Counted from the stretch's first letter, positions 9,844-13,005 are shown. The stretch: DNA of 52,260 nt from Alphaproteobacteria bacterium (GCA_016793045.1 JAEUKZ010000155.1:1-52260), one strand, 5' to 3'. The notes: generated by a model not told the origin, from the letters alone. Translations and numbers: made by a program.

Positions 9844-10047
9844 TCATCGCGGGGCGGGGGCCGGCGCGGGACGGTCGTCGTGACCGTGCTCGTCATGGTC
9901 GTGATCGTGGTGATGCGCCGGCGCGGGCTCCGGGTCCGGCGGCGGCGGCGTGCCAGGCGACGATCGGCCGGCGCCGGCGCAGGCCGCAGCCAAGGGGGCG
10001 ATCCCGATCAGGGCGAGTGTGTGGCGGCGCGTGAAACCCAAAGTCAT
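9844..10047 (-). CDS. Small His/Asp-rich putative Tat lipoprotein (67 aa)
   Basis: AAGGA RBS, TRRHTL twin-arginine motif, LAAAC lipobox, Pro linker and HHHDHDHDEHGHDD tail. Confidence 0.65.
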   Translation of the reverse strand: MTLGFTRRHTLALIGIAPLAAACAGAGRSSPGTPPPPDPEPAPAHHHDHDHDEHGHDDRPAPAPAPR

Positions 10048-10130
10048 CCGGCGATCCTTTCGTCAATCGATGACACGACGGTATCGTACCTGCCGTCAAG
10101 GCGTCCCCAATGGCGGCACGCGCGACCCGG

Positions 10131-10159
10131 TTGACGGCCGCATCTCGCCACTCTAACGT
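10131..10159 (+). promoter_or_regulatory. Sigma70-type promoter TTGACG-N17-TAACGT
   Basis: Exact 17-nt spacer. The expected +1 falls at about 10165-10167. Confidence 0.65.
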
Positions 10160-10166
10160 GTCGACC

Positions 10167-10250
10167 ATGCGGTTTCCGCGCGTTCAACGCTATGCACTTC
10201 AAGGCTCGGCCATGCTCGGTCGGGGCCCGGGGAGTCTGCGTCAGCGCTGA
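10167..10250 (+). CDS. Candidate leader peptide (27 aa, MRFPRVQRYALQGSAMLGRGPGSLRQR)
   Basis: ATG sits at the predicted +1, so it would be leaderless. An alternative ATG at 10212 has AAGG 7 nt upstream. The ORF spans attenuator segments 1 and 2. Confidence 0.45.
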   Translation: MRFPRVQRYALQGSAMLGRGPGSLRQR

Positions 10251-10274
10251 ACGGGCGCGATCGGACGGAACACC

Positions 10275-10310
10275 AGGGCCCCCCGGCGACGGATGGGGCC
10301 CTTCTCATTT
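10275..10310 (+). terminator. Leader terminator-like hairpin
   Basis: AGGGCCCC/GGGGCCCT stem, then CCG/CGG closing a GCGA (GNRA) loop, followed by an imperfect U-tail TTCTCATTT. Confidence 0.55.
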
Positions 10311-10357
10311 CGAGAGCGGCCCCTCACCCGCACGCGGCGGCAGGAGAGGGACGGATC

Positions 10358-10414
10358 ATGATCAACGGGACTTTGGGGCTGCGGACCCGGCGGCCCGGCG
10401 GGTGCGGCACATGA
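10358..10414 (+). CDS. Small ORF (18 aa, MINGTLGLRTRRPGGCGT) coupled to the ABC ATPase
   Basis: AGGAGAGGG upstream. Its stop overlaps the ATPase start (ATGA at 10411-10414). Confidence 0.4.
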   Translation: MINGTLGLRTRRPGGCGT

Positions 10415-11421
10415 GTGCGATCCGCGTCGAAGCCCTCAGCAAGTCGTTCCGTGTCAGGCCGGCGCCGGGGCGGGGCTGGGCGCGTCTGCGCGCGGCGCTG
10501 CGTCCGCCGCCGGCCATCGTCGTACCGGCGGTGCGCGGCGTCTCGTTCGCGATCGCACCGGGCGAGCGCGTCGCCTTCATCGGCCCCAACGGCGCGGGCA
10601 AGTCGACGACGCTGAAGATGCTCACCGGCATCCTTCACCCCACCGGGGGCCACGCCGAGGTCGCCGGCTTCGTGCCGTGGCGGGAGCGGCGGCGCCTCGC
10701 GGGCCGGATCGGCATCGTGTTCGGCCAGCGCTCGCAGCTCTGGTACCAGCTGCCGGTGCGCGCCAGCTTCGACCTGCTGGCGCGCATTTACGGGATCGGC
10801 CGCGCCGCCTACGGCGAGCGCGCCGCGCGCCTCGCCGCGATCTTCGCGATCGGCGACCTGCTCGACCGGCCGGTGTCGGCGCTGTCGCTCGGGCAGCGAC
10901 TGCGCTGCGAGATTGCGGCGGCGCTGCTGCACGCCCCTTCAATCCTGCTGCTCGACGAGCCGACGATCGGCCTCGACGTCACCGCCAAGGCGGCGCTGCG
11001 CGACCACCTCAACGCGCTGTCGCGCGACGAGGGCACGACGGTGCTGCTGACCTCGCACGACACGGGCGACATCGAGCGCATCTGCGAGCGGGTCATCGTC
11101 ATCGACCACGGCAGCCTGCTGCTCGACCGGCCGCTGGCGGCGCTGCGCGACGCCTATCTGCGCCGGCGGATGATCGTGCTGGTGACGGAGGAGGAGCACG
11201 CCGCGATCGATCTGCCCGGCGTCGCCGTTGCCGCGCGCGAGCCGCATCGGCTGACACTCGAGGTGGATACCGAGGTGACTCCGATCGAACGCGTCGTCGG
11301 CGCCGCGCTGACGCGGCACGTGGTGCGCGACCTGGTGATCGAGAACCCGCCCCTTGAGGAGGTCATCAAGGCGATCTATCGCGGCCGTCCGGAGGCCGCG
11401 GCGGGGCCAGGCCATGCGTGA
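10411..11421 (+). CDS. ABC exporter ATP-binding subunit
   Basis: GPNGAGKST, FGQRSQLW, LSLGQ, LLLDEP and SHD motifs. Confidence 0.93.
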   Translation: MSAIRVEALSKSFRVRPAPGRGWARLRAALRPPPAIVVPAVRGVSFAIAPGERVAFIGPNGAGKSTTLKMLTGILHPTGGHAEVAGFVPWRERRRLAGRIGIVFGQRSQLWYQLPVRASFDLLARIYGIGRAAYGERAARLAAIFAIGDLLDRPVSALSLGQRLRCEIAAALLHAPSILLLDEPTIGLDVTAKAALRDHLNALSRDEGTTVLLTSHDTGDIERICERVIVIDHGSLLLDRPLAALRDAYLRRRMIVLVTEEEHAAIDLPGVAVAAREPHRLTLEVDTEVTPIERVVGAALTRHVVRDLVIENPPLEEVIKAIYRGRPEAAAGPGHA

Positions 11422-12202
11422 CGCCGATGCGCTGCACGCCTTCGCGACCCTGGGCTGGCGCAACGCGGCGGCGCAGCGCGCGGCCATCGTTGCGCGCGGC
11501 GGCCTCTACGTCCTGATCCTCGTGATCTGGTGGCAGCTCTGGCAGGCGACGCCGCTCGCGGAGCTCGCGCGCAGCGACGTCACCGCCGTCGGCCTGCTGT
11601 GGTACGTCGCCGTCACGGAATGGATCGTCTTCGCTGCCGGCATGCCCTACCGCGAGGTCGAAGCCGACATCCGCGACGGACGGATCGCCACGGCGTTGAC
11701 GCGTCCTATTCCCTATGGCGCGGCCGTTCTTGCCCAGTGGGCGGGGGAGGCGGCGTACCGCCTGCTCGCGCTCGGTGCGATCGGTTTCGCGGCGGCTTTC
11801 CTGCTGACCGGCACGGTCCCTGTCGCCATGGGCAGGTGGCCGGGCATCGCGCTCGCCGGCATCCTCGGCACCGCGGCGCTGCTGCTGTGCCAGTACGCGG
11901 TGGGCATGGCGGCGGCATGGAGCGGCGTCGCGGCGCCCCTGTACTGGATCTGGCAGAAACTGCTGTTCGTGCTCGGCGGCCTGCTGATGCCGCTCACGCT
12001 CTATCCGCCGGGGCTGCGCGCGCTGGCCGACCTGACGCCGTTCGCCGCCATGCTCTTCGCGCCGGCATCGCTCGCTTTCGATCCGGCGGCGGCGATCGCC
12101 GCGGTGCTGGCCGCGCAGATTGCCTGGCTGGCCGTGCTGGCCGCCGGAGCCGCGCTGATCGATCGCGCCGCGATCGTGCGCCTGCTCGATCGCGGCGGGT
12201 GA
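11414..12202 (+). CDS. ABC-2-type permease (DUF990/ABC2_membrane_6-like) 1
   Basis: About 6 TM, DIRDGRIATALTRP, LMPLTLYP. Overlaps the ATPase stop. Confidence 0.8.
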   Translation: MRDADALHAFATLGWRNAAAQRAAIVARGGLYVLILVIWWQLWQATPLAELARSDVTAVGLLWYVAVTEWIVFAAGMPYREVEADIRDGRIATALTRPIPYGAAVLAQWAGEAAYRLLALGAIGFAAAFLLTGTVPVAMGRWPGIALAGILGTAALLLCQYAVGMAAAWSGVAAPLYWIWQKLLFVLGGLLMPLTLYPPGLRALADLTPFAAMLFAPASLAFDPAAAIAAVLAAQIAWLAVLAAGAALIDRAAIVRLLDRGG

Positions 12203-12213
12203 GCGAGGCATCT

Positions 12214-13005
12214 ATGGGTATCCTGTCGGCCATTCACTACGCCGTTGCGCTCCTGCGGATGAACCTGCGCGCCGCATTCGCCCGGCCGGTCGTCGCGTTG
12301 ACGACTGCCGCGTTCATGTTCGGCAACAACATGATCTGGTACCTGGTCTGGGTGATCTACTTCGCCAATTTCTCGAACCTGCGCGGCTGGGTCGGTGCCG
12401 ATCTGGCGCTGCTGCTCGGCATCGTCGCCTGGGCATTCGGGCTCGCGGTGCTGCTCGCGGGCGGCGGGCGCGAACTCGCACAGGCGGTCGCCGATGGCGG
12501 GCTCGACGTTCATCTCGGCCGGCCGCGCCATCCGCTGCCGAGCCTGCTCGCGAACCGCTCGCTCCCCTCGGGCCTCGGCGACATGGCGAGCGCGTTCGTG
12601 TTCTGGCTGGTCTTTGCCGGGCGCGGCGCGGCCGATCTGCCGTTCCTTCTTCTCGTCGCGACGGCTTCGTCGGTCGTCGTGGTGGCGACGATGGTGGCGA
12701 CGCAGTGCCTGGCCTTCTGGCTGCCGCGTGCGGCGACGCTGTGCGAGGAACTGTTCCAGCAGTTCCTGATGGTCTGCTTCTACCCGCAGCATCCGTTCGG
12801 GTTCATGGCGCGGCTGGTGCTGTTCACCGTGTTTCCCGCGGCGTTCGTCGGGCTGCTGCCCGTCGAGGCCGTACGCGACGGCGACATTGCCAAGGCGCTC
12901 GCCATCGCCGCGGGGGCTCTGGTCTACGCCGCGCTGGCCGCCGCGATCTTCGCGCGCGGACTGCGGCGCTACGCGTCCGGCAACCGGCTCGTCGAATGGC
13001 GCTGA
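12214..13005 (+). CDS. ABC-2-type permease (DUF990-like) 2
   Basis: About 6 TM, GGLDVHLGRP, FYP..F and VFPAAF. Confidence 0.8.
   Translation: MGILSAIHYAVALLRMNLRAAFARPVVALTTAAFMFGNNMIWYLVWVIYFANFSNLRGWVGADLALLLGIVAWAFGLAVLLAGGGRELAQAVADGGLDVHLGRPRHPLPSLLANRSLPSGLGDMASAFVFWLVFAGRGAADLPFLLLVATASSVVVVATMVATQCLAFWLPRAATLCEELFQQFLMVCFYPQHPFGFMARLVLFTVFPAAFVGLLPVEAVRDGDIAKALAIAAGALVYAALAAAIFARGLRRYASGNRLVEWR

Follow-up and report, generated by a model that had tools for sequence, protein, structure and literature searches.

A putative leader-peptide attenuator with a leaderless upstream ORF in front of an uncharacterised EVE/DUF990-type ABC transporter operon

Organisation of the locus

The window, by which we mean the whole stretch of 52,260 nt of alphaproteobacterial DNA that was analysed (GCA_016793045.1, JAEUKZ010000155.1:1-52260; GC content approximately 72%), contains an uncharacterised three-gene ABC transporter operon preceded by a putative promoter, a short ORF and a terminator hairpin. 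A small His-rich ORF on the minus strand (9844-10047) is divergent from the ABC ATPase gene (10411-11421), and the gap between the two is 364 nt. The features of the leader and of the operon are listed below.

10131-10136, plus strand: -35 hexamer TTGACG
10154-10159, plus strand: -10 hexamer TAACGT, with a 17-nt spacer from the -35 hexamer and 7 nt to the ATG at 10167
10167-10250, plus strand: putative leaderless leader ORF (uORF) of 27 codons, MRFPRVQRYALQGSAMLGRGPGSLRQR, stop codon at 10248-10250
10197-10211, plus strand: segment 1, candidate 5' strand of an anti-antiterminator, core GGCTCGGCC at 10203-10211
10217-10231, plus strand: segment 2, predicted 5' strand of the antiterminator, within the uORF, GGTCGGGGCC at 10218-10227, pairing with 10271-10285
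10234-10266, plus strand: inner hairpin of the predicted antiterminator rod, whose apex contains the uORF stop codon
10271-10285, plus strand: segment 3, consisting of the terminator 5' arm (10276-10285) and 5 nt upstream of it, partner either segment 2 or segment 4
10286-10289, plus strand: GCGA tetraloop of the terminator (fold)
10290-10301, plus strand: segment 4, terminator 3' arm (fold)
10302-10310, plus strand: U-tail TTCTCATTT (fold)
10411-11421, plus strand: ABC ATPase, PF00005, annotated 'NatA-like' or EvrA-like
11414-12202, plus strand: permease 1, weak match to PF06182 (DUF990), 20.4 bits, below cut-off
12214-13005, plus strand: permease 2, PF06182 (DUF990), 70.9 bits

The terminator hairpin (10276-10301, GGGCCCCCCG-GCGA-CGG-AT-GGGGCCC; -19.7 kcal/mol) has a GNRA loop and a 2-nt bulge, and is followed by an imperfect U-tail with 6 T in 9. 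The heptamer GGGGCCC is found twice, in segment 2 (10222-10228) and in the terminator 3' arm (10295-10301), and segment 3 contains GGGCCCC (10276-10282). These elements had been proposed, together with the segments, the 27-codon ORF and a TTGACG-N17-TAACGT promoter that puts the ATG at the predicted +1, in an original prediction made by reading this stretch of DNA by itself, and all of them are present at the positions listed. The predicted transcription start falls on the ATG of the uORF or 1 nt 5' of it, and transcription probably begins at 10166-10167. With a start on or next to the ATG, there is no space for a Shine-Dalgarno sequence.

A consensus promoter and terminator scan of the window recovered neither promoter nor terminator, and the 255-nt leader did not fold better than shuffled sequences (z -0.46). 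Consensus scans and whole-leader folding are uninformative in this DNA of 72% GC. The sequence of the window alone is statistically unremarkable; the case beyond chance is a comparative one.

The weak PF06182 call for permease 1 is also obtained with its homologue in close relatives. With one ATPase and two PF06182 proteins, of which permease 1 stays below cut-off, the operon shows the make-up of the EVE/DUF990 family, and some homologues are named 'viologen exporter family' by JGI. The type member of this family is EvrABC of Synechocystis, a viologen exporter (TCDB 3.A.1.141; PMC5417439).

Conservation of the leader across genomes

Relatives of the ATPase were collected from species-representative genomes, public assemblies and metagenomes. 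The same layout precedes the same three-gene ABC operon at 83 loci, 43 from genomes and 40 from metagenomes; the uORF, which the original prediction had expected to recur in orthologues, is part of this shared architecture. The first set of 43 consists of 23 alphaproteobacterial leaders (including the window), 3 closer relatives and 17 leaders from other phyla. In the following, group A denotes the Alphaproteobacteria (26 loci including the window) and group B the loci from Gemmatimonadota, Myxococcota, Acidobacteriota and Steroidobacteraceae (17 loci). The layout, which spans at least four bacterial phyla, comprises a TTGAC promoter, an ATG on the predicted start or a few bases away from it, the short ORF and a GC-rich hairpin with a T-tract; a cultured bacterium, Virgifigura deserti SYSU D60014, is among the carriers. 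As TTGAC and an ATG-started ORF were search criteria, the search passed over leaders that have other promoters, and the counts are minimum values. In the metagenome scan, the strict pattern was found in 40 of the 69 loci that had enough upstream sequence, and several of the misses have a visible terminator and a different -35 element.

TTGAC is present by construction, which does not apply to its constant spacing from the ATG. In every leader of the first set (43/43), TTGAC(N) is found 35-42 nt 5' of the uORF ATG. In group A this distance is 35-38 nt, and the predicted start is on the ATG or at most 3 nt from it. Relative to the ATG, TA at -13/-12 and CC at -2/-1 are kept across the leaders. 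The leader ORFs measure 24-28 codons, and the length of 27 codons is shared by the window and by relatives with ATPase identities of 91, 85, 82 and 72%. In 43/43 leaders of the first set, the stop codon is followed at 18-32 nt by a GC-rich hairpin (-14 to -36 kcal/mol) and its T-tract. Hairpin and T-tract are found 18-33 nt past the stop in 83/83 leaders when the second set is included, for which they were partly a search criterion. Synteny, the ...GCGCTGA end and a near-identical terminator are common to the window and its relatives at 91, 85 and 82% ATPase identity; the terminator hairpin is the same in the 91% relative and nearly so in the 85% relative.

In most alphaproteobacterial loci 16-40 nt lie between the end of the terminator and the start of the ATPase gene, and 109 nt in the window. 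A gap of 16-40 nt leaves no room for a second promoter, and in most group A loci the operon would therefore be transcribed by read-through only.

Two architectures can be distinguished, with the antiterminator strand located either inside the ORF or directly 3' of the stop codon. The latter is found in group B, where a duplicate of the terminator 3' arm, CCGGAAGGG, located right after the stop codon, represents this strand, and where the 5' part of the ORF pairs with it in exact trp order.

Coding signals in the leader ORF

Since open frames are cheap in GC-rich DNA, frame-specific signals were chosen as the coding test, with the other two frames as control. Among 27 non-redundant leaders, internal ATGs of the leader ORFs were counted 37 times in frame versus 5 and 0 times in the other frames (approximately 6 expected per frame). 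In the same leaders, Val is enriched 2.3-fold and Ile 2.1-fold in the ORF frame, and GC at codon positions 1/2/3 amounts to 0.64/0.54/0.77, a GC3 periodicity. The signals were replicated with 15 new non-redundant leaders from metagenomes (ATG 18 versus 1 and 0; Val 2.7-fold; Ile 1.9-fold). Family-wide, the enrichment of Met, Val and Ile is thus confined to the ORF's own frame and held in an independent set. Because the leaders are mutually related, count-based p-values overstate independence, which is mitigated by the second set and by the occurrence of the signals in both architectures. The peptide of the window is itself poor in Met/Val/Ile codons and contains V6 and M16 only.

These sequence-level signs of translation are strong, and the ORF is most probably translated. 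The ATGs in the ORF frame might serve either as back-up starts or as regulatory Met codons. A clustering of Met codons in the 8 codons 5' of the structural switch point (odds ratio 4.5) was seen in the first set and was absent on repeat in the second. A branched-chain amino-acid leader was also considered and rejected, as comparison of the composition with real proteins gave Cys and Met and not Ile/Val/Leu. The Cys excess was gone when the other reading frames served as control, under which Met, Val and Ile stay enriched.

Conservation of the peptide is of a different nature from conservation of the RNA elements. Between the window and the relative with 91% ATPase identity, no alignment is possible over the N-terminal half of the peptide (its first 17 residues), whereas terminator, stop region and ORF length are all kept. 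Such a pattern would be expected for a regulatory ORF and not for a functional small protein. At the C-terminus, R-x-R-stop is kept in the alphaproteobacterial group and missing from the phyla of group B. Within group A, the last Arg is encoded by all four CGN codons and all three stop codons are used. The region coding for R-x-R-stop falls in the inner stem of the antiterminator rod. Its position within an RNA stem and its absence elsewhere therefore make a constraint on the RNA the more likely cause.

Terminator and antiterminator structures

For the antiterminator fold, each leader was folded without its terminator 3' arm. In 22 of 23 alphaproteobacterial leaders a stretch of the ORF from about -36 to -7 relative to the stop codon pairs with the terminator 5' arm; the core of this stretch is at about -31 to -12, and its partner includes a few bases 5' of the terminator arm. 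An intrinsic terminator between leader ORF and first structural gene is hence accompanied in these 22 leaders by a predicted antiterminator that is within reach of the ribosome and shares a strand with the terminator. In the window, the duplex of segments 2 and 3 has -27.0 kcal/mol (z -2.1 versus shuffles), and the antiterminator rod at 10217-10285 has -37.9 kcal/mol. This geometry, in which the stop codon caps the rod, recurs in the other alphaproteobacterial leaders.

Terminator sequences vary among the subfamilies, and segment 2 varies along with them. Cognate duplexes of segments 2 and 3 have a mean of -25.75 kcal/mol compared to -22.74 +/- 0.69 for permuted ones, and none of 20,000 permutations was as good. 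Against shuffles the duplexes have a mean z of -2.3, and a stretch taken as control from the ORF's 5' part gave -9.0. Segment 3 of the window pairs better with its own segment 2 than with segment 2 from any of 20 other leaders. Moreover, within one subfamily an additional T in segment 2 is balanced by an additional A in segment 3, a compensatory indel. RNAalifold recovered the rod with covarying pairs within one subfamily; applied to all alphaproteobacterial leaders together, aligned with MAFFT, it yielded no consensus structure, since subfamilies differ in their pairing register. Likewise, a covariance model built from one subfamily gave good scores for its own members only (window E 0.74). 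As this model is not general, the alignment-free permutation test described above replaced family-wide counting of pairs.

The 1:2 hairpin, in which segment 1 pairs with 10218-10234 in the nascent-RNA fold, has a predicted -12.5 to -15.5 kcal/mol. In the window as well as in its counterparts in other leaders this hairpin is no better than in shuffles, and the pairing is weak in most alphaproteobacterial relatives. Of the pairings put forward in the original prediction, 2:3 co-varies with the terminator, while 1:2 is predicted and gained no statistical support. In the naked leader, the terminator state (-71.2 kcal/mol) is favoured by 8.6 kcal/mol over the antiterminator state (-62.6 kcal/mol). 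The comparison of orthologues supports the prediction, with a conserved uORF layout and a segment 2 that covaries with segment 3.

Ribosome position and proposed mechanism

To model masking by the ribosome, the RNA was removed up to 12 nt beyond the A-site codon and upstream capture of the terminator 5' arm was computed. In this model, the antiterminator of the window has an occupancy of 0.6-0.9 for A-site codons 1-17. Codons 18-19 abolish it (occupancy 0), later codons allow no more than about 0.65, and the value without a ribosome is 0.32. The codons YALQ, near which stalling had been predicted, lie within codons 1-17, where the antiterminator persists in the model. The window would accordingly behave as a four-segment attenuator, off when untranslated, off at full translation and on when the ribosome is held early. 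For the majority of the remaining group A leaders the model predicts an antiterminator in the absence of a ribosome (occupancy 0.6-0.9), and therefore the four-segment trp logic fails for the family as a whole. The leaders of group B are modelled as permissive up to the last 2-3 codons. What the models have in common across the groups is that termination needs a ribosome at the 3' end of the uORF by the time the terminator is synthesised.

We consider a ribosome-dependent (leader-peptide) transcription attenuator, which controls the uncharacterised three-gene EVE/DUF990 ABC operon, to be the best explanation, with a probability of roughly 0.78. Transcription from the TTGACG/TAACGT promoter would begin at or next to the ATG, and a ribosome would load on the 5' end of the transcript without a Shine-Dalgarno sequence. 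Segment 2, located in the 3' third of the ORF, and segment 3 could form the long antiterminator rod, whose tip carries the stop codon. A ribosome that keeps pace with RNA polymerase and resides in codons 18-27 would cover or unwind segment 2. With segment 2 blocked, the terminator at 10276-10301 would form, and transcription would stop at about 10305-10310. A ribosome held in the first approximately 17 codons would break the competing 5' pairing of segment 2; segment 2 would then be free, the antiterminator would form and the pump genes would be transcribed. The core of the original prediction, a leaderless uORF attenuating an ABC exporter, is supported by conservation, co-variation and frame-specific codon bias. 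Regulated read-through is the predicted outcome.

Inducing signal and alternative explanations

A clue to the signal comes from Firmicute orthologues, in which a ykkC-fold aptamer replaces the uORF. It is found in operons of Cohnella sp. REN36 and of a Clostridia MAG; both ATPases are approximately 50% identical to that of the window (Cohnella 50%), and the Cohnella locus has the same three genes. Their aptamers score 31.2 and 50.8 bits compared to a guanidine-I gathering threshold of 63, and from gene association and score they probably belong to subtype 2a. The aptamer occurs in Firmicute orthologues only, and in the window (9900-10600) Rfam gave no match to a ykkC-like aptamer at E<=10. In front of operons composed of 'natA', COG3694 and COG4587, Sherlock et al. 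described (p)ppGpp riboswitches of ykkC subtype 2a, a link between riboswitch and natA operon that they could not explain (PMC6003355). For natA aptamers, including those of Cohnella and Paenibacillus, (p)ppGpp binding has been confirmed (PMC9881157).

Several arguments speak for a drug as signal, i.e. for a specific ribosome-targeting antibiotic or metabolite that arrests the ribosome on the leader peptide and so induces a resistance exporter. The architecture equals that of bmrB-bmrCD, where transcription of an ABC transporter is induced by antibiotics via a leader ORF (PMC4191407), and EvrABC, the only characterised relative of the pump, exports viologens (TCDB 3.A.1.141, PMC5417439). According to the masking model, the element would be switched on by every elongation inhibitor that keeps the ribosome within codons 1-17. 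Among NCBIfam models, the DrrA daunorubicin-resistance subfamily matches the ATPase best, but with 194 versus 312 bits it stays far under the cut-off. The peptide is, however, too variable for a drug-specific arrest peptide. It is unconserved even at 91% ATPase identity, and an NCBIfam search with it returned no match at E<=10, so that no leader-peptide model fits. The leaders do not share a conserved peptide motif as expected of drug-sensing arrest peptides of the ErmCL, CatA86L or BmrB type, and R-x-R-stop, confined to the alphaproteobacterial group and located in the inner stem of the rod, is likelier to be constrained as RNA. Moreover, it is (p)ppGpp, not a drug, that controls the Firmicute orthologues. 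Overall, we regard a drug-sensing attenuator as unlikely.

Slowed translation or amino-acid starvation is favoured over a specific drug as the signal of the proposed attenuator, since the peptide is unconserved and the Firmicute operons are under (p)ppGpp riboswitches. Provided that the attenuator is real, amino-acid limitation, with Met, Val and Ile as the enriched codons, would have not quite an even chance of being the signal, ribosome-targeting compounds would have a markedly smaller one, and any general slowing of translation would account for the rest. By analogy to bmrB-bmrCD a drug trigger is possible, and it would be compatible with a starvation trigger. Lowered leaderless initiation by (p)ppGpp was considered as a signal and dropped, as the opposite sign has been reported in E. 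coli: according to a review, (p)ppGpp may activate leaderless translation in this organism (PMC9031893).

In Firmicutes, (p)ppGpp riboswitches control three gene classes, of which the pump is one. A further switch on the operon, linked to translation and of unrelated mechanism, suggests that the pump is needed, and the operon induced, when translation or amino-acid supply falters. Going further, uORF leader and Firmicute (p)ppGpp riboswitch might be unrelated sensors in front of the same EVE/DUF990 pump, which would make the pump a conserved output of amino-acid starvation in many phyla; this broader reading is tentative, and we hold the odds to be against it. Under it, the uORF would sense the supply of charged Met-, Val- and Ile-tRNA, and being leaderless it may keep loading ribosomes while (p)ppGpp represses canonical initiation.

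It is very improbable that the element is an independent gene with its own terminator, encoding an sRNA or a small exported or membrane peptide, and that the ABC operon is separate or handles the peptide. Promoter, transcript of approximately 140 nt and intrinsic terminator would be the anatomy of an sRNA gene too, and attenuator RNAs can work in trans, rnTrpL being an example (PMC6614838). In addition, the peptides are moderately hydrophobic, and in the window the 109 nt from terminator to ATPase start are in favour of such a gene. In most alphaproteobacterial loci, however, the gap of 16-40 nt leaves read-through as the only evident source of operon mRNA, and co-varying complementarity between segment 2 and the terminator 5' arm would be purposeless in a plain terminator. 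Furthermore, the peptide sequence is without purifying selection, and blastn of the leader against the window's own assembly revealed no second copy. Most improbable of all is a riboswitch or a protein-controlled terminator/antiterminator with an incidental ORF: Firmicute orthologues do use a riboswitch and 25-codon open frames are common by chance at 70% GC, but Rfam gave no match in 9900-10600 of the window at E<=10 and none in 40 loci at gathering threshold, conserved bases sit in helices and form no conserved single-stranded blocks, and ATG/Val/Ile frame bias, GC3 periodicity and constant ORF length are unexpected in a non-coding leader.

As a leader-peptide attenuator, the element would represent a clean natural case of a leaderless regulatory uORF beyond Deinococcus and Actinobacteria. 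The leader family, always located 5' of one ABC transporter family, is absent from Rfam and NCBIfam, and the literature searched contained no paper describing it, which agrees with the original prediction that the leader is not a described one. It offers simple reporter constructs toward the inducing condition and then toward the substrate of the pump. If uORF and riboswitch are indeed two sensors for one pump, the leader would open a genetic route to the unexplained 'natA' class among ppGpp-riboswitch regulons.

Comparison with known systems

Leader-peptide attenuation is a textbook mechanism, and the mechanism proposed here is of this known kind. The trpL, ilvL/ivbL and thrL leaders of E. 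coli likewise consist of a short promoter-proximal ORF, an intrinsic terminator and an overlapping antiterminator, with ribosome position as the signal. The 1-2-3-4 order of trp is matched by the window and by the leaders of other phyla, and the ilv leaders are resembled by hydrophobic Val/Ile-rich runs in Gemmatimonadota, e.g. TIVVAEVL. Classical attenuators control a biosynthetic operon or a tRNA synthetase, whereas here an ABC transporter is controlled. Moreover, no amino acid dominates; the leader ORFs have 1-3 Met plus Val/Ile, with few of these codons in the window. The alphaproteobacterial group differs further from classical attenuators in that the antiterminator strand lies within the ORF and that the ribosome-free default is mostly antiterminated, as modelled.

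EvrABC of Synechocystis PCC 6803 is like the genes of the window in comprising one ATPase and two PF06182 membrane proteins. The evr genes are scattered in the genome of Synechocystis PCC 6803, and to our knowledge no such leader is known for them.

In Deinococcus deserti, leaderless leader peptides are already known (PMC4007540). In bmrB-bmrCD of Bacillus subtilis, as proposed for the present leader, a leader ORF and alternative stem-loops bring about ribosome-mediated attenuation of an ABC exporter (PMC4191407). In bmrB a Shine-Dalgarno sequence is present and the terminator lies inside the ORF, whereas the uORF described here is predicted to be leaderless and has its terminator 3' of the stop codon. 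BmrCD belongs to the heterodimeric type-I exporters, in contrast to the ABC-2/DUF990 system found here, and bmrB and the present leader have no sequence similarity.

The ykkC subtype 2a riboswitch likewise takes a terminator/antiterminator decision in front of an orthologous three-gene ABC operon (PMC6003355, PMC9881157). It is expected to activate the operon under a shortage of amino acids or translation capacity, as we propose for the leader described here. Its sensor is an RNA aptamer for (p)ppGpp, whereas the sensor in the window and its relatives is predicted to be a translated uORF.

Translational start of the ATPase

In the window, the first gene of the ABC operon is preceded by a second small ORF downstream of the leader's terminator, and a further small ORF lies divergently upstream:

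10342-10414, second small ORF of 18 codons, ATG at 10358, Shine-Dalgarno (SD) sequence GGAGAGGG upstream
9844-10047, minus strand, divergent ORF of 67 aa with a His/Asp-rich tail

GGAGAGGG is the sole good SD sequence. It precedes the 18-codon ORF, whose stop codon TGA overlaps the ATG of the ATPase as ATGA. In L086, the locus whose ATPase is 91% identical, SD, small ORF and ATPase are arranged as in the window, but the peptide differs. Since the ATPase of the 85% and 82% relatives starts at the corresponding SD-ATG itself, approximately 50 nt seem to have been gained in the window's lineage, which now seems to rely on translational coupling.

Access to this SD may be linked to the terminator. 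An alternative partner for the terminator 3' arm and tail is found at 10312-10323 (GGGGCC...GGCCCC, TCTC/GAGA; region 10295-10350), and the hairpin is kept in L086 and in L087, an 85% relative. The alternative for CCCCTC (10320-10325) is predicted pairing with the SD, around 10342-10350. The SD might thus be exposed in antiterminated transcripts and would be hidden in those arising from leaky read-through.

The 85% relatives L087 and L088 have predicted genes of 55-57 aa at the position equivalent to the divergent 67-aa ORF, adjoining pyruvate kinase and a conserved 121-aa ORF without a family match.

Leaders at the compared loci

The number of leader carriers, counted by the TTGAC and ATG-started ORF pattern, is a lower bound, because six metagenome loci (L123, L126, L127, L135, L139, L140) have no TTGAC at the expected distance, although the group B terminator (CGCCCTTCCGG...CCGGAAGGGCG TTTT) lies clearly upstream of their ATPase and a post-stop CCGGAAG copy is present. 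Leader ORFs of the Acidobacteriota type (L054, L119, L122, L130, L134, L145, L151, L164) share the C-terminal motif G-(G/E)-E-L-H-x-E-x-x-V/A-stop, which could be a genuine peptide-level motif, perhaps for arrest, or else reflect an RNA constraint.

Six MAG records labelled Acidoferrum, Verrucomicrobiia, Asaia, Rhizobium, Marinimicrobia and Vicinamibacterales are at odds with their leader and ATPase type, which is alphaproteobacterial in L004, L007, L009, L014 and L022 and Gemmatimonadota-like in L069; this mismatch suggests mislabelling or misbinning. Two unrelated loci, L006 (789-1006 and 2587-2661) and L083 (5776-6015), carry group II intron domains beside the ABC operon.

A more distant alphaproteobacterial clade of the operon (L034, L035, L039, L116, L118, L142) is devoid of the uORF leader. 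Upstream, some 100-150 nt from the ATPase match, its members instead have a conserved hairpin, (T/C)CAGCC...GGCTGACAG, without a match in Rfam. This may be a leader of another type.
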